Source of the DNA: Escherichia phage VEc74
Reading direction: 5' to 3' (one strand)
DNA length: 64,000 bases
Sequence record: MT932213.1
Positions 1 to 63,965 of this stretch are shown piece by piece (within the stretch, counting starts at the first letter, position 1; the number at the start of each line of letters is the position of its first letter). The notes below the pieces were generated by a model. The model searched no databases, had not been told where the DNA came from, and saw nothing but the letters and a program-made list of their open reading frames with translations. The translations under genes and the position numbers were made by a program.

Positions 1-260
1 GAAATGAAATCAGTAAATTCAACATCAAAATCGCATGTCAATGAATAAATTGATTCAATACTGTTAATAAGTATTCCAGGACGTATTAAAGACTTTTTAC
101 CTCTGGAAAATCTTCCAGAAAGACTTTCATCAGTTTCATATGAAGAACCCCAATAATAATTACGTCCTTCTGCCATGCGTTTAAGAGCATTTAGCAATTG
201 GTCTGGAACATCAACCTGTCTTTGGAACTCTTCAAACATTGAATTGAAATCACTTTGCAT
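1..260 (-). CDS. hypothetical protein, 3'-truncated at window edge (N-terminus MQSDFNSMFEEFQRQVDVPDQLLNALKRMAEGRNYYWGSSYETDESLSGR)
   Basis: Manual minus-strand translation from ATG at 258-260 (alternative ATG 237-239) stays open to position 3; the 3' end lies beyond the window start. Confidence 0.35.
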   Translation of the reverse strand, partial: MQSDFNSMFEEFQRQVDVPDQLLNALKRMAEGRNYYWGSSYETDESLSGRFSRGKKSLIRPGILINSIESIYSLTCDFDVEFTDFI

Positions 261-287
261 TTTCATTCCTATTTACTCCAAGTAATA

Positions 288-301
288 GGGGCCGAAGCCC
301 C
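288..301 (-). terminator. GC hairpin GGGGCTTCGGCCCC (UUCG tetraloop) downstream of ORF 308..901
   Basis: Perfect inverted repeat read directly; no strong T-tract, so it may act as an RNA-stability hairpin rather than a terminator. Confidence 0.45.
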
Positions 302-307
302 TTATCA

Positions 308-901
308 TTATTTCAGAGAATTAATATATTCCTGAACATCGGCAGAGGTAGTTTCAACCCCAGAAATATTACCATTAAAGGTTTCAACTCGAGCAAGAGT
401 ATCTTCAATATCAACCTTAGTTAGCGCTGCGATTTCAACTACATCATCGGCAGTACTAATTCCAAGGGCATTTGCCGCACGAGTTTCACGGATATATTCC
501 AATTTAACTGCAAGTTCTTGGCGAGCATCATCTAACTCAACTACTTTCTTGGCGATTTCAATTCGCATTTCAGCATAACCATCAGCTTTAGTAGTCAACT
601 GTTCAGCTGTTCGACGATATAACAAGCCAAGTTTAGCATGCATTGTTACATCTTGACCTTCGGAAAGAAGCTTGCGAATTTCACGCTCTTTTGATTCGGC
701 TTGCTTATTCTTTTCGACAATAAGTTCACGAATACGCTTTTCTTCATTAATAGATTTAACGGAAGCAGTTTTTAGATCTTTAATCTTATCAAGTAGTTTT
801 GCTGCTGCAGCAGTATACTGTTCTTCAACAGATAGATTTTTAGCCATAGCAGAACCAAGTTTAGTGCGAATAAACTCAACAATTTTCTTCAGTGTGTTCA
901 T
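308..901 (-). CDS. hypothetical early protein, 197 aa
   Basis: Six-frame ORF; AAGGAAA ribosome-binding site and GTTTAC/TATAAT elements upstream (962-968, 941-950); no motif recognised. Confidence 0.65.
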
Positions 902-944
902 AGTATTTCCTTAGGTTGATTAAGATTTAAAATCCGTGAGAGTA

Positions 945-1121
945 TTATACTCCGGATAGTTTGTAAACTATTTCAACATCGCCTTTTGCTGCTTTATAAC
1001 CTTCAGCCCAAGATACAACCGAGTTTTTATCTGAAGATTCAAATTCTGGCATTGGGCTTTCGCCAATGTTCACGCAGTATGTTTCTTCATTTTCGTCGAA
1101 CCAAATAATTAAAGTAGTCAT
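945..1121 (-). CDS. small hypothetical protein, 58 aa (MTTLIIWFDENEETYCVNIGESPMPEF...)
   Basis: Manual translation; GGAGAAATAA ribosome-binding site immediately upstream of ATG at 1119-1121; below the ORF-track size cut-off. Confidence 0.4.
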   Translation of the reverse strand: MTTLIIWFDENEETYCVNIGESPMPEFESSDKNSVVSWAEGYKAAKGDVEIVYKLSGV

Positions 1122-1189
1122 TTATTTCTCCGTTTCTGTATTTGTTTTGATAAGTCTATAATAACACCGTCCTTGGTGTTTGTACACAA

Positions 1190-1453
1190 TTATTTCATAT
1201 TATTGAAATATTCTTCTGCGATTTCGTCGTTATCATGGTAAACTTTAGAAGACAGTTTAACATAACCTTCTGCCGTGAACATATTAATCACAACCTTTAC
1301 AGTATACCACTGACCATCTTCATTACCCATTACTGCATAGGTTTCAAACATCGGATGGTCAGGACCGATAACTTTAATATCATTCACTGTACGACCAAAA
1401 TCTTCTGAAACGCATTTCATAAAGAAGTTGAACAGTTCACCGTAATTATCCAT
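1190..1453 (-). CDS. hypothetical early protein, about 87 aa (start trimmed to MDNYGELF)
   Basis: ORF-track 1190..1516 begins at a TTG inside the promoter; ATG at 1451-1453 sits directly after the conserved leader tttattctcc and the early promoter at 1497-1526. Confidence 0.55.
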   Translation of the reverse strand: MDNYGELFNFFMKCVSEDFGRTVNDIKVIGPDHPMFETYAVMGNEDGQWYTVKVVINMFTAEGYVKLSSKVYHDNDEIAEEYFNNMK

Positions 1454-1496
1454 TTTATTCTCCAAGTTGTTTTCTGTATCAGTAGTTGATAGTTGT

Positions 1497-1526
1497 ATAG
1501 TACCATGGAAGGACAAGGATGTAAAC
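1497..1526 (-). promoter_or_regulatory. T4-type early promoter (GTTTAC, 18-nt spacer, TACTAT) with conserved leader
   Basis: Minus strand reads GTTTAC atccttgtccttccatgg TACTAT; same module repeated upstream of the Ip genes. Confidence 0.6.
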
Positions 1527-1659
1527 TGTTTTGTGAAAAAATTTTTAAAAGTTTTAGGGAATTCTAGGGGCAGGGAGGGGCAATTAAAAGATAGGATAAT
1601 ATATTATAAAGGATAGAAACTAAATGATGCCTAGAGATGTCTGGAAAGGCCTAGATACC

Positions 1660-1687
1660 AAAAAGCCCCAACCTTTCGGTCGGGGCT
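1660..1687 (-). terminator. rho-independent terminator closing the tRNA/small RNA transcription unit
   Basis: Minus strand reads AGCCCCGACCGAAAGGTTGGGGCT followed by TTTTT. Confidence 0.7.
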
Positions 1688-1738
1688 AAGCCTTGCGGCA
1701 ACCTTGTCGGGGTTCCACCTGCTAAGGCAAGTGTTTGT

Positions 1739-1830
1739 ACGAAACGCCGGGATTCGAACCCGGTTATTAAGTAGTTGACGCTACTCAATATTTTTAAAAG
1801 GCCATATCTCGACCATATCCGAACGTTCCG
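1739..1830 (-). ncRNA. tRNA-like element with non-canonical D and anticodon arms (possible degenerate tRNA or small stable RNA)
   Basis: Canonical T-arm CCGGG-TTCGAAT-CCCGG and a 7-bp acceptor pairing (CGGAACG/CGTTTCG with one G-U), but the internal 58 nt do not fold as standard D and anticodon arms. Confidence 0.3.
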
Positions 1831-2003
1831 TCAAAAACGCTACTCGGCTTACGGCAAAGATATTTCCTCGAATCGATAATTCGGTGCGCCGTTTCTGCTG
1901 TGATATAAGGGGACATTAACAAAACATAAAGATTTATTAATGCCAGTCCTTAAACAGGGAACATCAGTCCGACGACTTGCCGGTAGCGACCCGGCTTCTT
2001 GTC

Positions 2004-2079
2004 TGGTCGAGGCAGTAGGGATCGAACCTACGACCCAGGACTTAGAAGGTCCTTGCTCTTCCTTCTGAGCTATGCCTCG
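2004..2079 (-). tRNA. tRNA-Arg (anticodon TCT)
   Basis: Hand-folded cloverleaf: acceptor CGAGGCA/TGCCTCG, D-stem GCTC/GAGC, anticodon loop CTTCTAA, T-arm GTAGG-TTCGATC-CCTAC, CCA encoded. Confidence 0.85.
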
Positions 2080-2083
2080 TATT

Positions 2084-2158
2084 TGGCGGACGTGATAGGA
2101 TTCGAACCTATAACCAATCGCTTAACAGGCGATCGCTCTGCCATTGAGCTACACATCC
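2084..2158 (-). tRNA. tRNA-Asn (anticodon GTT)
   Basis: Hand-folded: acceptor GGATGTG/CACGTCC, D-stem GCTC/GAGC, anticodon loop CTGTTAA, T-arm ATAGG-TTCGAAT-CCTAT, CCA encoded. Confidence 0.8.
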
Positions 2159-2162
2159 AAAT

Positions 2163-2249
2163 TGGTGGGGAGTGGTGGAGTCGAACCACCCGAGTCGCAA
2201 TGACAATGGATTTACAGTCCACACCGCTACCTCTACGGGATAACTCCCC
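2163..2249 (-). tRNA. tRNA-Tyr candidate (anticodon GTA), type II with long variable arm
   Basis: Acceptor GGGGAGT/ACTCCCC, anticodon stem-loop GTGGA-CTGTAAA-TCCAT, T-arm GGTGG-TTCGACT-CCACC, CCA encoded; D-arm pairing is irregular in my manual fold. Confidence 0.55.
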
Positions 2250-2259
2250 CAAATTAATT

Positions 2260-2334
2260 TGGTGGCCCTGGGTGGAATTGAACCACCATCTGGCGATTAT
2301 GAGTCGCTTGCTTGAACCTTCCAGCTACAGGGCC
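2260..2334 (-). tRNA. tRNA with CAT anticodon (Met or Ile2; T4 counterpart is tRNA-Ile)
   Basis: Acceptor GGCCCTG/CAGGGCC, anticodon loop CTCATAA, T-arm GGTGG-TTCAATT-CCACC, CCA encoded; 1-nt spacer to tRNA-Thr. Confidence 0.8.
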
Positions 2335-2335
2335 T

Positions 2336-2411
2336 TGGTGCTGATTGACGGAATCGAACCGCCGACCTTCTCATTACAAGTGAGTTGCTCTACCTACTAA
2401 GCTAAATCAGC
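2336..2411 (-). tRNA. tRNA-Thr (anticodon TGT)
   Basis: Acceptor GCTGATT/AATCAGC, D-stem GCTT/GAGC, anticodon loop CTTGTAA, T-arm GGCGG-TTCGATT-CCGTC, CCA encoded. Confidence 0.85.
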
Positions 2412-2416
2412 AAAAC

Positions 2417-2506
2417 TGGCGGAGGCGATAGGATTTGAACCTATGAGTCGCCGGAGCGACTGCCGGTTTTCAAGACCGGTGCATTAAACCACTCTGCCAC
2501 GCCTCC
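2417..2506 (-). tRNA. tRNA-Ser (anticodon TGA), type II
   Basis: Acceptor GGAGGCG/CGCCTCC, 3-bp D-stem, anticodon stem-loop CCGGT-CTTGAAA-ACCGG, long variable arm, T-arm ATAGG-TTCAAAT-CCTAT, CCA encoded. Confidence 0.85.
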
Positions 2507-2508
2507 AG

Positions 2509-2582
2509 TCTCCGCGGCAGGATTTGAACCTGCGACATTCTGCTCCCAAAGCAGACGCTCTACCAAACTGAGCTACACGGAG
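2509..2582 (-). tRNA. tRNA-Pro (anticodon TGG)
   Basis: Acceptor CTCCGTG/CGCGGAG, D-stem GCTC/GAGC, anticodon stem-loop TCTGC-TTTGGGA-GCAGA, T-arm GCAGG-TTCAAAT-CCTGC; CCA not encoded; 2-nt spacer to tRNA-Ser (dimeric precursor arrangement as in T4). Confidence 0.85.
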
Positions 2583-2592
2583 TAAATTAAAT

Positions 2593-2666
<74 letters not shown>

Positions 2667-2671
2667 AAATT

Positions 2672-2758
2672 TGGTGCGAGAAGTGGGACTCGAACCCACA
2701 AGGAAATCATTCCGCAGCATTTTAAGTGCTGTGCCTTTACCAATTTGGCCATTCTCGC
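2672..2758 (-). tRNA. tRNA-Leu (anticodon TAA), type II
   Basis: Acceptor GCGAGAA/TTCTCGC, 3-bp D-stem, anticodon stem-loop CAGCA-CTTAAAA-TGCTG, long variable arm, T-arm GTGGG-TTCGAGT-CCCAC, CCA encoded. Confidence 0.85.
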
Positions 2759-2764
2759 GCTATA

Positions 2765-3373
2765 TTATTTATTACGTGAAAAAGACTGTTCTATCAATTC
2801 TGGACACTTTCGTTCTATCCATTTTCTAGCTTTTTGTGGGCTTATACCTATTATTTTAGCAGCTTTACTAACCCATCCAAATTTAGAATAATCGATTTTA
2901 ACTAATTCTTCGTAAATTTCATCAGTTAAAATCTTTTCATTAATATTTACCAGTAAATGATATAATTTATTATCATTAGCAATTTTAATGAATCTTTTAT
3001 AGTTTCCGCCTTTACTTAAGCCTAATGAAGTAATTGCAGATGATATAGTAGCCGAATTTAATAGTGCGTTTAAAATTTCTTCATCACTAACATTATAACG
3101 CTTTTTATTATTTTTAATATTTTTACCAGCAAAAGTATCAGTTTGCGAATGGCAGTTTGGACATAATAATCTTAAATTTGATTTAAGATGATTTTTGTTA
3201 TTTCCATCAATATGGTCTAATTGCAGAACAATATGCTTATTTTGCCATTTTGAAATTTTACAAATTGCACACTCATATGGAAAAATATTTTCTTTTATTA
3301 TTTTGTCTTTCAGCTTTCCTGTACTAAAATTTGGATGTTTTCCTTCAAAAATTTCAGCTAATTTAGTATCCAT
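2765..3373 (-). CDS. HNH-family homing endonuclease, about 202 aa
   Basis: Motif LQLDHIDGNNKNHLKSNLRLLCPNCH (His-Asn-His with CxxC) plus upstream CxxC (YECAICK); stop codon 7 nt from the 5' end of tRNA-Leu; start trimmed from the TTG of ORF 2765..3397 to ATG (MDTKL). Confidence 0.75.
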   Translation of the reverse strand: MDTKLAEIFEGKHPNFSTGKLKDKIIKENIFPYECAICKISKWQNKHIVLQLDHIDGNNKNHLKSNLRLLCPNCHSQTDTFAGKNIKNNKKRYNVSDEEILNALLNSATISSAITSLGLSKGGNYKRFIKIANDNKLYHLLVNINEKILTDEIYEELVKIDYSKFGWVSKAAKIIGISPQKARKWIERKCPELIEQSFSRNK

Positions 3374-3472
3374 AATATGATTCCCAATTATTAACAAAGG
3401 CTCTCAAATAAGAACCCTTGATGATAGAGGGTATTAATCAGTGCGGTATGAGTTAATAATAACAAATAATTC

Positions 3473-3997
3473 TTAAAGCAAATTAAACATTTTAACGGTC
3501 GGCAAAACAATTTCTTCTTCTATATAAGAGTATTTAACACTCTCAACTACACGCAAAAAATCATAATCATAATACTCAGAAGCATTACCTAAAATATTAG
3601 TAAGTCCTTCAAGCACTTTATTACCATTCACAAAGAATAAGTCAAATACACGTTCTTCGTCTTCTTCGGATTTATTACCAAGGTCAACTTCTATGTCAAA
3701 GACCTTTTTAATGAATTCTGGATAAAGTTGTTCTGAGAACAGTCCTTCAACCAAGTATTCATAAATAAAAAGCGATTGCTCGCTGAACAAGCCATTACCA
3801 CAATAACGTTCAGCTTTAGTACTAGAATGTCTGCTTTTAAACTTCTTTAAAAGATATTGGAACTGTAAGATTTCATGCTCTTCTACGCCAAACAGTGTTT
3901 TAGTTTTATAATTGTCACCATCATTTTCCCAGGTAGTGACATCAATTACGTAACCCTGCGGAATTGTAGTACCTAAACAAATATTCATTTTCACCAC
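3473..3997 (-). CDS. hypothetical protein, 174 aa
   Basis: Six-frame ORF, overlaps next ORF by 7 nt (operon-like); no motif recognised. Confidence 0.55.
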   Translation of the reverse strand: MVKMNICLGTTIPQGYVIDVTTWENDGDNYKTKTLFGVEEHEILQFQYLLKKFKSRHSSTKAERYCGNGLFSEQSLFIYEYLVEGLFSEQLYPEFIKKVFDIEVDLGNKSEEDEERVFDLFFVNGNKVLEGLTNILGNASEYYDYDFLRVVESVKYSYIEEEIVLPTVKMFNLL

Positions 3998-4281
3998 GCT
4001 GCATTAATATAAGTATATTTAATACATTCAAGACTTAAAGGATTCTTGAAAATATCATATTCAAGAGGACCTTTTTCTGTTTCAATAAAGAAATCAAAAT
4101 TTACTGTATTAAATTTACGGTCTTCCTTCACTAATTTAACCTGAGAAGATGAACGGTCAATGTAAACCTTTTCAACTTCAAAACATGTTAAAATGCCATA
4201 ATCATCAATCAAGGCTTTAGCTGCTTCTTGATCATATTTATATCCATTTTCAACGGATGATACTTTCGCATAAAGAATCAT
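3991..4281 (-). CDS. hypothetical protein, 96 aa
   Basis: Six-frame ORF, tightly packed with neighbours. Confidence 0.5.
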   Translation of the reverse strand: MILYAKVSSVENGYKYDQEAAKALIDDYGILTCFEVEKVYIDRSSSQVKLVKEDRKFNTVNFDFFIETEKGPLEYDIFKNPLSLECIKYTYINAAW

Positions 4282-4283
4282 TA

Positions 4284-4706
4284 TCAGCCTTCATCAACAA
4301 TAGTATGAGTATGGGCATTTACGATTTGCCACCAATCAAAGCGATTAGAACCATACATCGGTTTGTTTTCATTTTCTTTGATAATATCACGGAGTTCATC
4401 TTCGGTAGCGGCTTTCGCGATTAAATCAGCATATCCACCACGAGGATAATAATTATCACCTGCAAAAAGTAAAAAATTTGGTGTAATATTATTGAACTCT
4501 TCAAGAGTAATAACTGTTCCTGATGGTAGTTGAACAATCTCTACATAGTTATATCCTAATTTTTGAGCAGCATCTACTGCTTCAAGCAGAGTATCATGAG
4601 CCCGTCCTATTTGGCAATTTGGCTTTTTAGATGGATTAGCCTGATAATCCGCGTACACTTTATACATTCTATTCACCTTTAGAAATTTTATCCATAACGA
4701 TAGCAA
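4284..4706 (-). CDS. hypothetical protein, 140 aa (possibly 127 aa from MYKVYADYQ)
   Basis: Six-frame ORF; its 5' end overlaps ORF 4669..4854, so the internal ATG at 4665-4667 is a plausible true start. Confidence 0.55.
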   Translation of the reverse strand: MLSLWIKFLKVNRMYKVYADYQANPSKKPNCQIGRAHDTLLEAVDAAQKLGYNYVEIVQLPSGTVITLEEFNNITPNFLLFAGDNYYPRGGYADLIAKAATEDELRDIIKENENKPMYGSNRFDWWQIVNAHTHTIVDEG

Positions 4707-4854
4707 TTAAACCAATTAAAAATGCTACTACAAGTGAAAACACATTTTCTGCTGTAGTTAATAATCCGCATATAAATCCAACAAACATTGAAAAACTAAA
4801 AGCGGAAGCAGAAATTGCAATAGCAGCATTTCGAATTAATTCACAACGTTTCAT
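4669..4854 (-). CDS. small hydrophobic (membrane-like) protein, 61 aa
   Basis: Strongly hydrophobic sequence (AIAISASAFSFSMFVGFICGLL...LVVAFLIGLIAIV); preceded by the conserved leader and early promoter at 4883-4912. Confidence 0.5.
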   Translation of the reverse strand: MKRCELIRNAAIAISASAFSFSMFVGFICGLLTTAENVFSLVVAFLIGLIAIVMDKISKGE

Positions 4855-4882
4855 TTTATTCTCCTCAGTAGTTGATAGGGTA

Positions 4883-4912
4883 ATAGTATCACAACTAAAA
4901 CCCTATGTAAAC
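4883..4912 (-). promoter_or_regulatory. T4-type early promoter with stem-loop leader
   Basis: Minus strand reads GTTTAC, 18 nt, TACTAT, followed by leader ...ctatcaactactgaggagaataaaATG. Confidence 0.6.
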
Positions 4913-4915
4913 AAT

Positions 4916-5140
4916 TTATTCAACACCAGCGGCTTTCAAAAGTTTTTTAAGATTGGCAACACCTTGAGCAGAAAATGTGACCTTGCCACCTTTTTCACTG
5001 ATAGAACCAACCAATTTAGCAAGTTTATCATTAGGAATTTTTTTAAAATCAGACAATGTTCCATCAAAGGTTTTTGAAACAAAAGGCAGTTCGTCTTCGC
5101 GTCTTTTAGCTTCTACAATAAATTCTTTAGATGTTTTCAT
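4916..5140 (-). CDS. internal-protein-like (Ip) protein, 74 aa, N-terminal capsid-targeting sequence MKTSKEFIVE
   Basis: N-terminus matches the T4 internal-protein targeting consensus MKT(Y/F)(Q/K)EFI.E with Glu at a gp21 protease-type cleavage position; own early promoter. Confidence 0.7.
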   Translation of the reverse strand: MKTSKEFIVEAKRREDELPFVSKTFDGTLSDFKKIPNDKLAKLVGSISEKGGKVTFSAQGVANLKKLLKAAGVE

Positions 5141-5168
5141 TTTATTCTCCTCAGTAGTTGATAGGGTA

Positions 5169-5198
5169 ATAATATCACTACCCCATCTAAAAGTAAAC
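5169..5198 (-). promoter_or_regulatory. T4-type early promoter with stem-loop leader
   Basis: Minus strand reads GTTTAC, 18 nt, TATTAT; RBS GAGGAG before the ATG at 5140. Confidence 0.6.
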
Positions 5199-5208
5199 GG
5201 TTTATAAA

Positions 5209-5517
5209 CTATTTTATTCCGCGTGATGCAATTGTGTTCTGCCGTTTAACGCCAGTTTGTTTAAAGTCATGATTGTCGATTTGATCGGTACGAGCAACTC
5301 CGAATGATGATTTGATCTTAGCTTTAGATCCTTTAGTTATAGAAATAAACATCTCGGAAGCCCCTTTCTTAAAGTCCGAGGCGATTACTTCAACGCCGTT
5401 CTTAGCAAGTGACTTCAGAATTGCCTCCGCATACTCATCATCAAGACTCGCCTGAGTATTAATAACGAATGTCTTTGGCGCAGCCGCTTCATTGATAAAT
5501 TCTTTAAATGTTTTCAT
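5209..5517 (-). CDS. internal-protein-like (Ip) protein, 102 aa, N-terminus MKTFKEFINEAA
   Basis: Capsid-targeting-like N-terminus; divergent body; own early promoter. Confidence 0.7.
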   Translation of the reverse strand: MKTFKEFINEAAAPKTFVINTQASLDDEYAEAILKSLAKNGVEVIASDFKKGASEMFISITKGSKAKIKSSFGVARTDQIDNHDFKQTGVKRQNTIASRGIK

Positions 5518-5547
5518 TTTATTTTCCTAATTAATTTTGATGAGATA

Positions 5548-5577
5548 ATAGTATCACTACCCTATTTAAAAGTAAAC
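5548..5577 (-). promoter_or_regulatory. T4-type early promoter
   Basis: Minus strand reads GTTTAC, 18 nt, TACTAT; the -35 overlaps the stop codon of the upstream Ip-like gene. Confidence 0.6.
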
Positions 5578-5850
5578 TCATTTTAAATAAATTGCGTATT
5601 TTTTATAACCCGCTGACTCATGACGAAGACCCTTATCATTAGCAAAACGCTCAATGTTGTTAATTTGATTCTGATCAAGTTCAGAGATGTCAAACACGAA
5701 AAAGTTACGTTTGTTACCAACTGTTATATAGTCAGTTAAATCAATATCATATAGGTAATTGATGTCAGCAATCAAAGTCTTGACAGCTTTGCTAATTTTT
5801 ACTTTTTCGTTAAAAGCAGCTTCAGCAATAAATTCTTGATACGTTTTCAT
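5578..5850 (-). CDS. internal-protein-like (Ip) protein, 90 aa, N-terminus MKTYQEFIAEAAF
   Basis: ORF-track 5578..5910 extends into the promoter; true ATG at 5848-5850 follows the conserved leader; N-terminus matches the T4 IPI-type targeting sequence as I recall it. Confidence 0.7.
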   Translation of the reverse strand: MKTYQEFIAEAAFNEKVKISKAVKTLIADINYLYDIDLTDYITVGNKRNFFVFDISELDQNQINNIERFANDKGLRHESAGYKKYAIYLK

Positions 5851-5878
5851 TTTATTCTCCTCAGTAGTTGATAGGATA

Positions 5879-5908
5879 ATAGTATCACTACTAAAACCCC
5901 GTGTAAAC
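5879..5908 (-). promoter_or_regulatory. T4-type early promoter
   Basis: Minus strand reads GTTTAC, 18 nt, TACTAT. Confidence 0.6.
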
Positions 5909-5920
5909 AACTTTGTGAAA

Positions 5921-6178
5921 TTATTTTAAATCTTCTAATCGTTTCTTCATCTTAGAACCGTTCTTAGCGATTTCGCCTGCATCAGAGCATAATGCTAAAA
6001 GCGCTTTAACTTTAGTTTGGTCTCCTTTAAAAGATGAAGGATCAACAGCAGCAGCAAGTTCTTTAATACGAGAGAAAAGACGCTCAGCTTCAGCTAAAGC
6101 CATTCCAAGCTTTACTTCCATACCGTGGGAAGATTCAGTAATAGTAGTTTTTGTAGCAAACTCTTTGAAAGTTTTCAT
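5921..6178 (-). CDS. internal-protein-like (Ip) protein, 85 aa, N-terminus MKTFKEFATKTTITE
   Basis: Capsid-targeting-like N-terminus; own early promoter. Confidence 0.65.
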   Translation of the reverse strand: MKTFKEFATKTTITESSHGMEVKLGMALAEAERLFSRIKELAAAVDPSSFKGDQTKVKALLALCSDAGEIAKNGSKMKKRLEDLK

Positions 6179-6208
6179 TTTATTTTCCTAATTAATTTTG
6201 ATGAGGTA

Positions 6209-6238
6209 ATAGTATCACTACCTCATCAGCATGTAAAC
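6209..6238 (-). promoter_or_regulatory. T4-type early promoter with hairpin GATGAGGTA...TACCTCATC around the -10
   Basis: Minus strand reads GTTTAC, 18 nt, TACTAT; inverted repeat read directly. Confidence 0.6.
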
Positions 6239-6250
6239 AACTTTGTGAAA

Positions 6251-6935
<685 letters not shown>

Positions 6936-6936
<1 letters not shown>

Positions 6937-7661
6937 TATAGTACCTTTAGTGTATTTTTAATTTTAGAAAAAAGTTCTTCAAGAGAACCATCGTTTGTAA
7001 TTACTAAATCGCCATCACGAATTGGCAATCCAGCTTCTGTAATATGTGTATCATTGGATTTTTGACCAGGACGAACTACATGAATTACTGTAGCACCCAT
7101 CGCCCTAGCCGCATCCATTTCATGATCTTGACGGGTATCAGGAACGATATAATAATCATAACCTGAGTTAAATTTATCAAGATAATCTAAAGCAAATAAT
7201 TTTACCCAGTACATGCGGTCGAAGTTATTAACAATCAAATCCGTACCTAGGGCTTGCATCAGACGACGGACTGACCATTGATCTTCAATATTATTTATAA
7301 CGTCAATAATCTTGTTAAATGCTACGGAATTAACTGATTCTTGTCCTTCGTCATCAAAAACAAACACACCTTTAATTGGGCTTTTACCATTAAGATAGCA
7401 AAATGCTTGTTCCATAATGGTGATTACTTCTAATTTAGTCAGATTTAAATTAGTCTCACGATCATAGTCAATTCCTTCAAACTCTTTACGAGTTAAGCAA
7501 GGATAGTCAGTGTTTGCTGCAAATACTCCCCATGCATAAGCCAATGCATCCTTAATAGGACCAGCAAGTTGGTATTTAATTGCAGAATAATTGCTCATGA
7601 TAAAATCAGCAGTAGTATCTTTTCCACTACGCTTTACACCGCTTAAAAAGATTAGTTTCAT
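6936..7661 (-). CDS. 1: deoxynucleoside monophosphate kinase (gp1), 241 aa
   Basis: N-terminus MKLIFLSGVKRSGKDTTADF with P-loop GVKRSGKDT; start trimmed from ORF 6936..7700. Confidence 0.9.
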
Positions 7662-7710
7662 GTGTTTCTCCTCAAATTTAATTAAGATTATAACACACAA
7701 AACTGAAGCA

Positions 7711-8241
7711 TTAAACTTCTGCTATAATTTTTCCATCTTTTTCTACTTGAAAATAGGTGTAAGGAATCGTTGCTGTACATACTAAAGCCGGGTCTGAATC
7801 TTCTGTGTAGCTAAATTCTACTTCAGACAGGTCAGAAACCCAAGGCTTATAAAAATTTATTGACATCACGATTTCAGTTTTGCTATTATCTAAAATGTAA
7901 AGCGTAATGTATTCAGGACCTGTTTTTTGGGCAGTATTTTCACCTGTAAGATAGTTGCTAGTTCCTAGCATCCATTCATACATTCCTATCCATGACTTAA
8001 GTTCTTCATCAACTATAAATCTCACGATGAGTGGATCGTACTCAAATGTAGCACCTGGACGTTGTGCTCGACCAAGTCCAAACGGCCCAGTCACGGTATC
8101 AGTAACAGGTATTCTAATTCCTGGAATAGGAACTGACTGAGCATTTAAAGTAAAAGCAGATGTAGTATTACTATGTGGTATTGATACTACAAAGTTAGTT
8201 GTATTTGCTTGGTTAAAAATTTGTTGCAGAGCTTGCGACAT
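7711..8241 (-). CDS. 3: tail completion / sheath stabiliser gp3, 176 aa
   Basis: Size and gene order (1-3-2-4) as in T4; start set at MSQALQQ (ATG 8239-8241). Confidence 0.8.
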   Translation of the reverse strand: MSQALQQIFNQANTTNFVVSIPHSNTTSAFTLNAQSVPIPGIRIPVTDTVTGPFGLGRAQRPGATFEYDPLIVRFIVDEELKSWIGMYEWMLGTSNYLTGENTAQKTGPEYITLYILDNSKTEIVMSINFYKPWVSDLSEVEFSYTEDSDPALVCTATIPYTYFQVEKDGKIIAEV

Positions 8242-63265: not shown

Positions 63266-63631
63266 TTAAATATCAAATTCGTTAAGAACTACATCAAAGA
63301 TTGCTTCAAGATGCTCAGGTTTAGCTCTGTTACTCAGAATATGACGAATCCAAGTTTTAACTAAGAGTTTACGATTAACACCATTCCAGCAAGGATGAGT
63401 CCCTAAATCACGTTGACGGAAATCATCATCCAGAGCGATTTTAAAGTTGGAACCTTCCATCGTGATTGAAACCGTGATACCGTTTTCAAATCGCATATAA
63501 ACGTAGTTAGGAATCATATACTGTTCAATTTCGCATACTGATCCGTTTTGATGTTTCCAGAGGCAAATAGTATCAATAGAACCTGCAATACCATTAGAAA
63601 CATATTTACGTTCAAAGTTGATGTAGTTCAT
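63266..63631 (-). CDS. hypothetical early protein, about 121 aa
   Basis: Start trimmed to the ATG at 63629-63631 that follows the conserved leader tttattctcc. Confidence 0.55.
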   Translation of the reverse strand: MNYINFERKYVSNGIAGSIDTICLWKHQNGSVCEIEQYMIPNYVYMRFENGITVSITMEGSNFKIALDDDFRQRDLGTHPCWNGVNRKLLVKTWIRHILSNRAKPEHLEAIFDVVLNEFDI

Positions 63632-63666
63632 TTTATTCTCCAAGATGTTTAATTACGGTACAGGTA

Positions 63667-63696
63667 TATAATATCATATCCTGTACCAAAGTAAAC
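63667..63696 (-). promoter_or_regulatory. T4-type early promoter with hairpin GGTACAGG...CCTGTACC
   Basis: Minus strand GTTTAC, about 17 nt, TATTAT, and an inverted repeat around the -10. Confidence 0.55.
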
Positions 63697-63698
63697 AA

Positions 63699-63965
63699 TT
63701 ATTTTACTACTTTCCAATGCTGCATGTCAAGTTTACCAACTTTTTTCATCTTCTCAATTAAGCGTTCGGCACGTTGGCGAGCTGTAACATAATACCATTC
63801 ACCTAATTCATTTTGTTCAATTTTTCCAACGATTACTGTATTCAATTCATAAATCCAACCAGTAAAGAAATTATGAACTTGAATTGTAAAGGTGAAATCT
63901 GTTCCCATACCTTCTGTTGTTTCTACTTCAATAATATCACCTTCAACCGCCATTAAGAACCACAT
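63699..63965 (-). CDS. hypothetical protein, 88 aa
   Basis: Six-frame ORF at the window edge. Confidence 0.45.
   Translation of the reverse strand: MWFLMAVEGDIIEVETTEGMGTDFTFTIQVHNFFTGWIYELNTVIVGKIEQNELGEWYYVTARQRAERLIEKMKKVGKLDMQHWKVVK

Follow-up and report, generated by a model that had tools for sequence, protein, structure and literature searches.

The 64,000-nucleotide (nt) stretch of the Escherichia phage VEc74 genome analysed here (sequence record MT932213.1; hereafter the window) carries on its minus strand a row of small genes that are each preceded by a closely similar early promoter and leader, and this raises the question of what the repeated element is and whether genes are gained, lost and exchanged at its copies. 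An initial annotation had likened the copies to the promoter-early stem-loop (PeSL) cassettes of T4-type phages and had taken them for breakpoints delimiting variable genes. The region is very probably the hyperplastic ipI locus of a T-even phage (Tequatrovirus), in which every internal-protein (ip) gene has its own copy of an early promoter, a leader and a targeting sequence and in which these copies are exchanged by recombination.

The repeat is real and far beyond chance. The pattern GTTTAC-N16-20-TAYTAT occurs exactly seven times in the 64 kb, always on the minus strand (0.18 matches expected; 0 of 100 shuffles reach seven), upstream of the ATGs at 6178, 5850, 5517, 5140, 4854, 1453 and 63631, so that all seven promoter sites of the initial annotation lie where it had placed them, and a profile built from the seven copies re-finds every one with nhmmer (E values of 1e-10 to 2e-19). 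The 18-nt spacer given for them is present at six sites, but at 63631 it is 17 nt. The extended identity proposed for the whole set holds for the five tandem copies (6238-4852) but not for those upstream of e.8 (1453) and 30.7 (63631), which share consensus elements only. A direct-repeat search returned three overlapping families of 69-81 nt within 4500-6400, and the tandem units, at about 110-130 bp, are longer than the approximately 60 nt first described: upstream they take in the final codons of the gene before (the ends of 57B and ip5 agree at 27 of 30 positions) and downstream the first 10-15 codons of the following one (27-29 of 36 positions over the first 10-12 codons of ip9, ip7 and ip8). 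These five modules occupy the 60-72 nt intergenic gaps among 57B, ip5, ip9, ip7, ip8 and tRNA.4 in direct orientation, at a spacing of 286-379 bp. The leader that had been thought common to all copies exists in several versions. Leader A, ACTACTGAGGAGAATAAAATG, is exact at 4854, 5140 and 5850 only (tRNA.4, ip8 and ip9 are identical at 22 of 22 positions), while the sites at 6178 and 5517 have in common leader B, TCATCAAAATTAATTAGGAAAATAAAATG / TCATCAAAATTAATTAGGAAAATAAA (24 of 24); the leader at 63631 has only GGAGAATAAAATG in common with the other copies, and that of e.8 reads ACTACTGA, followed by a 15-nt insertion relative to the other copies and then GGAGAATAAA. Invariant across all seven copies is GGA(G/A)AATAAAATG, the Shine-Dalgarno sequence and start at the 3' end. 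Over the 25 nt upstream of the -35 the AT content is 84% at four sites, 76% at a fifth and 60-68% at the other two, the window mean being 64%, and an exact-pattern scan of IMG/VR for the core together with leader A gave 3 contigs only.

GTTTAC forms the -35 at all seven sites and a TG precedes the -10 at all six sites scanned; the consensus scan gave the sites within positions 1-8000 a score of 9 of 12, with TG. The published consensus of T4 early promoters places GTTTAC at -36 to -31, with GT-rich sequence 5' of -12 and an UP region rich in A (PMC1524935), and such promoters have been described as 'uber' promoters of the form UP/-35/TGn/-10 with extra consensus regions (PMC2988021). The seven sites are predicted to be promoters of this T4-type early class; a homologous site is annotated 'promoter' in the Yersinia phages fPS-2 and fPS-90, and a literature search found no T4 maps of transcription starts or termination covering these sites.

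All five tandem modules lie on the minus strand. Module 1 (57B>ip5; 6134-6250) starts at the 57B end GATTTAAAATAA and comprises an AT-rich tract, the -35 GTTTAC (6238-6233), TGn and the -10 TACTAT (6214-6209), a 13-bp hairpin (6228-6199), leader B with the Shine-Dalgarno AGGAAA, the ATG at 6178 and the codons of the Ip5 start MKTFKEFATKTTITE; the promoter scan reads it as TTTACA-17-TACTAT with TG. Module 2 (ip5>ip9; 5821-5920) has its -35 at 5908-5903, its -10 at 5884-5879 and a weak hairpin at 5900-5873, followed by leader A with GGAGAATAAAA and the ATG at 5850, from which Ip9 begins MKTYQEFIAE. Module 3 (ip9>ip7; 5488-5577; -35 at 5577-5572, -10 at 5553-5548) lacks a significant hairpin and leads through leader B to the ATG at 5517 and the Ip7 start MKTFKEFINE. 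Module 4 (ip7>ip8; 5111-5208) combines a -35 at 5198-5193 with the -10 TATTAT at 5174-5169, a 12-bp hairpin at 5187-5160 and leader A with GGAGAATAAAA, the ATG at 5140 opening Ip8 with MKTSKEFIVE. Module 5 (ip8>tRNA.4; 4852-4915; -35 at 4912-4907, -10 at 4888-4883, hairpin at 4906-4875) again has leader A with GGAGAATAAAA, and its ATG at 4854 is not followed by targeting codons.

Positions 1-7000 correspond on the minus strand to the tRNA/57A neighbourhood of a T-even phage, in the order 57A, 57B, ip5, ip9, ip7, ip8, tRNA.4, three open reading frames (ORFs), an HNH ORF, nine tRNAs and e.8. A megablast search with 4600-6300 matched 779 phage records, headed by Z35082, the RB15 DNA for Ip5, Ip9, Ip7 and Ip8 (96.5% identity), with RB32/RB33 and T2 next. 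The four ip genes, all named in Z35082, are ip5 (5921-6178; internal head protein of 85 amino acids; PHROG 3499, E 1e-49), ip9 (5578-5850; internal head protein, 90 amino acids; PHROG 7673, E 4e-55), ip7 (5209-5517; internal head protein, 102 amino acids; PHROG 2667, E 2e-41) and ip8 (4916-5140; internal virion protein, 74 amino acids; PHROG 8765, E 8e-23); Pfam gave no match for any of the four proteins. Their N-termini are predicted to be the capsid-targeting sequence of T-even internal proteins. The ends of these targeting sequences we take to be (I/L)xE sites, from what is known of the T4 prohead protease. A conserved capsid-targeting sequence is carried by otherwise diverse internal proteins, and from T4 IpI 19 residues ending in ...STITE are removed, in agreement with the published mature form of 76 residues (PMC3012670). 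In T4 a different GmrSD-type restriction enzyme is inhibited by each of Ip1, Ip2 and Ip3 (PMC12373910), and the genes of the window, rightly called variable at first although neither the internal head proteins nor the targeting codons within the repeat had been recognized, are candidates for injected anti-restriction proteins.

Are the copies products of exchange, or have they been kept alike one by one? When the tandem copies are compared in five segments, the best partner changes from segment to segment. Over the upstream 30 nt ip5 pairs with ip9 (27/30); over GTTTAC and the spacer ip9 pairs with tRNA.4 and ip7 with ip8 (16/18 each); over the core with the -10 all five agree at 14-17 of 18 positions; and over the leader ip5 equals ip7 while ip9, ip8 and tRNA.4 are the same. 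The incongruence is most simply read as the product of exchange among the copies and not of separate selection for promoter strength. It would be improbable that the copies are alike only through separate selection for promoter, ribosome-binding site and targeting peptide, with the array changes arising as illegitimate events. T4 early promoters do share a consensus well beyond the hexamers (PMC2988021), the dispersed T4 promoters 70696 and 27080 are near-identical over 65 nt, the targeting sequence is under functional constraint (PMC3012670), and the limited likeness of the e.8 and 30.7 copies is what such selection would give. Set against this are the changing partners of the tandem copies, their identity at positions with no known consensus role (spacers 16/18, leaders 22/22 and 24/24) and, among relatives, novel junctions that are exact chimeras and deleted or inserted units that are bounded by repeats.

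Those relatives were surveyed over the interval from 57B to tRNA.4 in 18 other phages, which with the window gives 19 genomes and about 70 junctions. Ten gene arrays were found: ip5-ip9-ip7-ip8 in the window and RB15; ip5-ip9-ip7 in RB32; ip5-ip7 in T2; ipI-ip9-ip7-ip8 in UFV-AREG1, KIT06 and EP01; ipI alone in T4; ip9-ip7-ip8 in F13076, ECO07P1 and 310Ecol104PP; ip9-ip7 in five phages; ip7-ip8 in ZCEC14; ip5-ipI, a duplicated 57B'-ip5-ipI block and ip8 in CM8; and, in a different order, ORF147-ip8-ip9-ip7 in WG01. By blastn, RB32 keeps collinearity with the window as far as 5135 and matches it again from 4895, ip8 being absent, and its GenBank record describes ip9 and ip7 as 'flanked by 43 bp direct repeat'; in T2, which is without ip9, the match resumes at 5560. 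T4, UFV-AREG1 and KIT06 have ipI in place of the ip5 body, diverging after the targeting codons (about 6144) and rejoining at ATTTCACAAAGTTGTTTAC. The comparison of flanking gene content in relatives thus brought out cassette-bounded gains, losses and swaps, and the breakpoint role that the initial annotation had given to all copies holds for the five tandem ones. None was found for the copies at e.8, near which one indel was examined, and at 30.7, around which indels were not examined.

The junctions follow a simple rule. The spacer type tracks the upstream gene whatever lies downstream (ip7 17/17, ip9 15/15, ip5 6/6, ipI 5/5), and the leader type tracks the downstream gene (ip7 17/17, tRNA.4 18/18, ipI 6/6, ip5 4/4), ip8 and ip9 having two leader alleles each; this places the crossovers mostly in the core, GTGATAYTATTAYCYYATCAA, and each promoter would be a join of two halves from different cassettes. 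Every novel junction is an exact chimera made from two parental modules, and the choice between FK and YQ at targeting codons 4-5 is independent of the gene body. The gene bodies are also less widely distributed than their surroundings, with 251 records for ip5, 52 for ip9, 120 for ip7 and 43 for ip8 against about 700-780 for the flanks. In the Mosigvirus phages S143_2 and SQ17, Ip9 and Ip7 are 89-96% identical to those of the window and 57B and tRNA.4 82-86%, and the ip7 body matches 23 Enterobacter-phage records at 90-95% nucleotide identity, which suggests that cassettes have been transferred between genera.

A mechanism of ordinary homologous recombination would account for this pattern. 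The module consists of an AT-rich tract, an early promoter of the T4 type (GTTTAC and a TG-extended TAYTAT, 18 nt apart), usually an inverted repeat with the -10 in its loop and 3' arm, and a short leader that exists in two versions and has a strong Shine-Dalgarno sequence; the ip modules add 10-15 targeting codons, MKT[F/Y/S][K/Q]EF..E, whose product would be cleaved off in the prohead. Each cassette would be transcribed alone by the host sigma-70 RNA polymerase, and the Ip product would be routed into the capsid and injected with the DNA. Directly repeated, the modules would offer 43-110 bp of portable homology to the recombination system of the phage, and a crossover in the core would keep the -35/spacer half joined to the upstream gene and the -10/leader/targeting half joined to the gene downstream. 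Because every recombinant would then rebuild a complete promoter, cassettes could be deleted, duplicated, replaced and reordered without loss of expression, and since the module carries the expression and packaging signals of the Ip genes jointly, a gene exchanged within it would stay both expressed and packaged. Recombination in T4 has been reported to need less than 50 bp of homology (PMC2839356), and amplifications and deletions by recombination have been shown experimentally in that phage (PMC9391042).

Several observations weigh against this account or against parts of it. Promoter use, capsid targeting and crossover are all read from the sequence together with the T4 literature. At five 57B>ip9 junctions the crossover would lie in the upstream repeat, on the upstream side of the -35, and the ip8>ip9 junction of WG01 has no promoter, the ip8 stop (GAATAA) directly abutting the ip9 ATG. 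The relative gene order is the same in 18 of the 19 arrays, and a longer ancestral array that lost genes by deletion, with no insertion of cassettes, could account for most of the diversity. The stem-loop is also inconstant. At 5517 (ip7) and 1453 (e.8) RNA folding gives z +0.8 and no hairpin, from which it follows that the hairpin is not required for the module. A covariation test over 15 distinct copies does not set the score clearly apart from shuffled ones: 86.7% of cells pair against 33-70% in slid controls, but a single pair changes on both sides and 31 of 500 shuffles reach the score. A terminator scan called none of the module hairpins and found no downstream U-run, the true terminators lying at 1687-1664 and 287-302.

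Two surveyed genomes show further arrangements of the array. Shigella phage CM8 (649-2240 of the fetched sequence) has a tandem duplication of a 974-bp block made of the 3' part of 57B, ip5 and ipI, in the order 57B-ip5-ipI-57B'-ip5-ipI-ip8, in which an ip8-type leader start, ATCAAAACAAACACTCA, follows the first ipI and precedes the partial 57B; it resembles the segmental amplifications selected in T4 and could be an assembly artefact. In WG01, a Dhakavirus (1216-2368 of the fetched sequence), the ORF147 before ip8 starts with the targeting-like MKTYNEFLTE.

What, then, is the stem-loop for? An inverted repeat around the -10 had been claimed for all copies; folding bears this out at 6178 (-17.4 kcal/mol, z -3.9), 5140 (-16.1 kcal/mol, z -2.4), 4854 (-14.2 kcal/mol, z -2.0) and 63631 (-20.1 kcal/mol, z -3.8), gives a weak structure at 5850 (z -1.0) and none at the ip7 and e.8 sites, the ip7 module folding weakly in all phages that were examined. 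Hairpins built from at least nine unrelated arm sequences lie at one fixed position relative to the -10, with z <= -3.7; among the arm pairs are GATGAGGTA/TACCTCATC, ATAGGGT/ACCCTAT in two registers, TAGGACTA/TAGTCCTA in S143_2, AGGATGAT/ATCATCCT in SQ17, GGTCTATAG/CTATAGACC in WG01, GGTACAGG/CCTGTACC at 30.7 and CCTAGAATTGTGA/TCACAATTCTAGG at T4 ipII. Chimeric junction modules, whose arms come from different parents, fold worse (T2 ip7, -8.1; 310Ecol104PP ip9, -7.2). Folding with z < -2 is seen at 8 of 22 GTTTAC-type sites in T4 positions 1-75,500 (36%) compared with 9 of 150 random windows (6%; Fisher p = 2e-4). One view with something to it, if a rather unlikely one, is nevertheless that the inverted repeats are a by-product of AT-rich promoter sequence and of the common ancestry of the copies and serve no function: the covariation score is within reach of shuffled copies, the ip7 and e.8 modules do without a hairpin and 14 of the 22 T4 sites do not fold notably. 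Ancestry, however, hardly explains why nine unrelated arm sequences should occupy one place with respect to the -10, and the excess of folding at promoter-like sites over controls also speaks against it.

T4 has a second internal-protein locus, where the regions upstream of ipIII and ipII (T4 66415-66525 and 65718-65830) each show a GTTTAC promoter, an inverted repeat across the -10 and MKTYQEFIAEA. Their spacers, arms and leaders are unrelated to those of the ipI locus, so the two T4 loci share little DNA homology beyond the targeting codons.

The hairpin might instead direct the exchange itself, being extruded from single-stranded or supercoiled DNA and then cut or template-switched, say by endonuclease VII or at a stalled fork, in the manner of an integron without an integrase. 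The inferred crossovers do cluster in the core, which is the hairpin loop and 3' arm; crossovers of RB49 PeSL mini-circles were mapped inside the stem-loop's loop, and their authors speculated on a specific DNA-binding protein (PMC2839356); and the persistence of the hairpin in one position, with arms of at least nine unrelated sequences, would suit a site-directed process. The core is, however, also the longest uninterrupted identity, for which homologous recombination predicts the same clustering; junctions lie in the upstream repeat and the targeting codons as well; the ip9>ip7 module has no stable hairpin and yet recombines (T2, ZCEC14); and no recombinase was seen in the locus in the ORF list and the family searches run. 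We regard such structure- or site-directed exchange as very unlikely, and homologous recombination between the modules as the better account of the junctions.

A role in RNA is easier to envisage. Transcription usually starts about 7 nt downstream of a -10. The 5' arm therefore lies upstream of the inferred start, and the hairpin could form only in read-through RNA or in single-stranded DNA; it sits 10-25 nt past the upstream stop codon and ends 10-13 nt before the Shine-Dalgarno sequence. Intrinsic termination by the module hairpins was rejected, as they have no U-run and are absent from the terminator scan, and without a U-run the terminator half of the PeSL definition does not fit. The consensus late promoter TATAAATA does not occur on the minus strand in 4243-7291, the nearest on this strand being at 7299-7292, which is why a late promoter inside the modules was rejected; if late head-protein synthesis uses read-through from 7299-7292, the hairpins would not be efficient terminators.

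Downstream of the hairpin, the leader appears to contain a known post-transcriptional signal. The consensus for strong cleavage by RegB/S1 is GG*AGRAYARAA (PMC3014915), and GGAGAATAAAA agrees with it at 11 of 11 positions. In the 64 kb GGAGRAYARAA has five matches (0.42 expected), all on the minus strand and only at the Shine-Dalgarno blocks of five early genes (1453-1463, 4854-4864, 5140-5150, 5850-5860 and 63631-63641, by pattern scan). The sites at 6178 (ip5) and 5517 (ip7) read GGAAAATAAAA instead, without the fourth-position G/U. Part of what had been taken for leader identity is thus a putative RegB site, and leader versions A and B may differ in RegB sensitivity. A hairpin acting on read-through transcripts could attenuate or terminate them, like the insulator of a PeSL, or could stop the exonucleases that trim the RNA once RegB has cut the Shine-Dalgarno sequence at GG*AG, 12-15 nt downstream; the upstream mRNA would then be stable and the downstream cistron inactivated. 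Such a role is possible and we hold it tentatively, ranking it (as attenuation or as 3'-end protection after RegB cleavage) above absence of function, which in turn we place above recombination at the DNA level. In its favour are the positions of the 5' arm and of the upstream stop codon given above, the reduction of reporter expression, like that by a strong terminator, caused by one RB49 PeSL stem-loop (PMC2839356), the restriction of the strong consensus to these five Shine-Dalgarno sequences (PMC3014915) and the enrichment of hairpins at T4 early-promoter-like sites. Against it stand the lack of a U-run after any hairpin, the lack of a late promoter inside the array together with the inefficiency that read-through would imply, the two modules without a hairpin and the two without GGAG. 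A combination of functions is unlikely: the hairpin would be selected both as a crossover focus between promoter halves in DNA, making integrase-free cassettes, and for RegB-linked cutting of read-through RNA into a protected upstream and an inactivated downstream mRNA, the RegB site lying 12-15 nt downstream and the leaders sorting genes into RegB-sensitive and RegB-resistant.

The copies outside the array appear to be ordinary T4-type early promoters. That of e.8 (1451-1537, minus strand; -35 at 1526-1521, -10 at 1502-1497) has no hairpin and a longer leader ending in GGAGAATAAAA. It is near-identical to the T4 promoters at 70696 and 27080 and belongs to their subfamily and not to the ip-locus family. 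These two T4 promoters, the first of which lies upstream of e.8, are nearly identical to each other over about 65 nt, TTTTTTCACAAAAC-GTTTACA...CCATGGTACTATACAACTATCAACTACTGATA. The 30.7 copy (63629-63706, minus strand; gene identified by Pfam Gp30.7) has its -35 at 63696-63691, a 17-nt spacer, its -10 at 63673-63668 and GGAGAATAAAA, and its strong hairpin, at about 63688-63656, has an arm sequence unrelated to the ip modules. No breakpoint role was found for the e.8 copy, the one nearby indel examined, in RB14, having terminator-like GGGCTTTTT repeats at its borders instead of the promoter. This RB14 insertion of 655 bp (405-1059 of the fetched sequence; compare window 1657-1684) holds one ORF starting MKTY, stands directly after the terminator hairpin behind two small stable RNAs (rnaC/rnaD in T4) and has GGGCTTTTT terminator-like hairpins on both sides; terminators may form a second class of repeated linker.

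Two weaker sites lie outside the original seven. An eighth copy (1126-1197, minus strand; nhmmer E 0.027), which the initial annotation had missed, lies upstream of a 58-amino-acid ORF (945-1121) and reads GTGTAC-N-TATTAT with TG (1186-1158 in the promoter scan), with the leader ATCAAAACAAA...GGAGAAATAAATG. A marginal profile match at 55130-55057 (minus strand) is a GTTTAC-N18-TATAGT promoter of the T4 early type that falls outside the pattern first described. The 3' arm of its hairpin, AACATGAGG, overlaps the Shine-Dalgarno sequence, so that only transcripts begun at that promoter would be freely translatable, and hairpins covering the Shine-Dalgarno sequence in this way are also seen at T4 denV, 62797 and 8218.

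The flanks of the array and the tRNA region complete the locus, all on the minus strand. 57A (6706-6936, from the ORF list and gene order) precedes 57B (6251-6709), the conserved left flank, which is of the Acb1 anti-CBASS type (Pfam Acb1, E 2.7e-60) and whose protein is 99-100% identical to 57B of T4, T2 and RB32. Several GenBank records label 57B 'RNA ligase', the Pfam match being to the Acb1 anti-CBASS nuclease, and the internal-protein array lies directly downstream of this second anti-defence gene (57B/acb1). The conserved right flank, tRNA.4 (4669-4854; PHROG 1692), encodes a predicted membrane protein of 61 amino acids that is 97-98% identical in Tequatrovirus genomes and 82-84% in Dhakavirus and Mosigvirus genomes. 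The tRNA cluster at 2004-2758 has nine tRNAs (Arg, Asn, Tyr, Met, Thr, Ser, Pro, Gly and Leu) and none for Gln. Directly upstream of tRNA-Leu, an HNH endonuclease ORF (2765-3373, 202 amino acids), which shares 99.5% identity with the HNH endonuclease annotated in phage Pu-Krd-SF5, stands where T4 and T2 have tRNA-Gln.

Since each T4 internal protein disarms a particular GmrSD-type enzyme, the content of the array would help to decide the host range of a T-even phage, and the repeated promoter/targeting module explains how readily that content can change. The interpretation of the repeats as promoter/stem-loop recombination linkers is essentially right and is already known, the locus and mechanism having been described since 1994 and restated in 2010 and 2014. 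The additions made here are modest: the rule of half-promoter linkage over 19 genomes, the varied hairpin arms at a fixed position, and the RegB/S1 match that divides the leaders into two classes. The established picture is confirmed, and it is of use in reading phage host range and in engineering T4-type phages.

Repeated elements combining an early promoter with a capsid-targeting sequence were reportedly described at the ipI locus of T-even phages by Repoila, Tetart, Bouet and Krisch in 1994 (EMBO J 13:4181). In RB15 (Z35082) this locus has the same genes in the same order, ip5-ip9-ip7-ip8, at 96.5% nucleotide identity and with the same early promoter and targeting start for each gene; it differs in that ip8 has a third leader, ATCAAAACAAAACACCCAAATGGAAACTAAA, where the window has leader A, and in several targeting codons. 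The T4 early promoter class (Liebig and Ruger, 1989; reviewed by Hinton, 2010, PMC2988021) has in common with the window sites the GTTTAC -35, the TGn-extended -10, the A/T-rich upstream region and extra conserved positions, but the five ip-locus copies share far more than this class consensus, namely spacers, leaders and first codons. In T4 genes e, soc, 49 and I-TevI the promoter likewise lies inside a hairpin, so that transcripts arriving from upstream can fold and promoter-started ones lack the 5' arm (PMC3014915); there, however, the hairpin sequesters the Shine-Dalgarno sequence or AUG and the internal promoter is late, whereas the ip module hairpins end before the Shine-Dalgarno sequence. 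The occluding arrangement is seen in the window at 55130-55057 and at several T4 early sites. An integron array offers another parallel in its tandem small adaptive genes, its repeated hairpin-capable element and its combinatorial content, but each cassette of the window has its own promoter and ordinary homology explains the exchange. The integron-like reading was rejected on the cassettes' own promoters and on the lack of an integrase match in 57B, tRNA.4 and the ORFs of 2765-4667; attC-like sites were not searched for.

The closest parallel is the PeSL, an AT-rich tract, sigma-70 promoter, stem-loop, Shine-Dalgarno sequence and ATG, in whose commonest RB49 layout the stem-loop lies between the hexamers or overlaps the -10 (Arbiol et al., 2010; PMC2839356). 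The resemblance first noted is borne out, as the PeSL authors themselves cite T-even internal-protein loci as PeSL-like; Repoila et al. (1994) are there credited with PeSL-like sequences at two such loci and with the proposal of shuffling (PMC2839356). The window modules resemble the PeSLs of RB49/phi1, and those described for the pairs PST/T4 and nt-1/KVP40 (Comeau et al., 2014; PMC4122927), in their composite layout of AT-rich tract, -35/-10, Shine-Dalgarno sequence and ATG, with a stem-loop that is clear at four of the seven sites, lie like them between small non-essential genes, form repeats of about 100 bp and are associated with indels between close relatives, and the PST/T4 promoter consensus TTTACW-N17-TAYWAT fits all seven window sites (PMC4122927). 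The differences are equally clear. The stem-loop of the PST/T4 PeSLs is drawn just upstream of the promoter, and that of the window lies across the -10; compared with RB49/phi1, the window has GTTTAC and not TTGACA as its -35 and AT-rich stems without polyG/polyC, and there is no sequence homology between the two. The PeSL authors regard the T-even elements as analogs and not homologs, with T4 early promoters and weaker AT-rich stems (PMC2839356). Unlike a PeSL, moreover, the window repeat continues into coding sequence, the targeting codons, and the likeness is one of sequence layout and junctions only. We suggest classing the window modules as early promoters of the T4 type that belong to the ipI locus and work like PeSLs, and not as members of the RB49 family.

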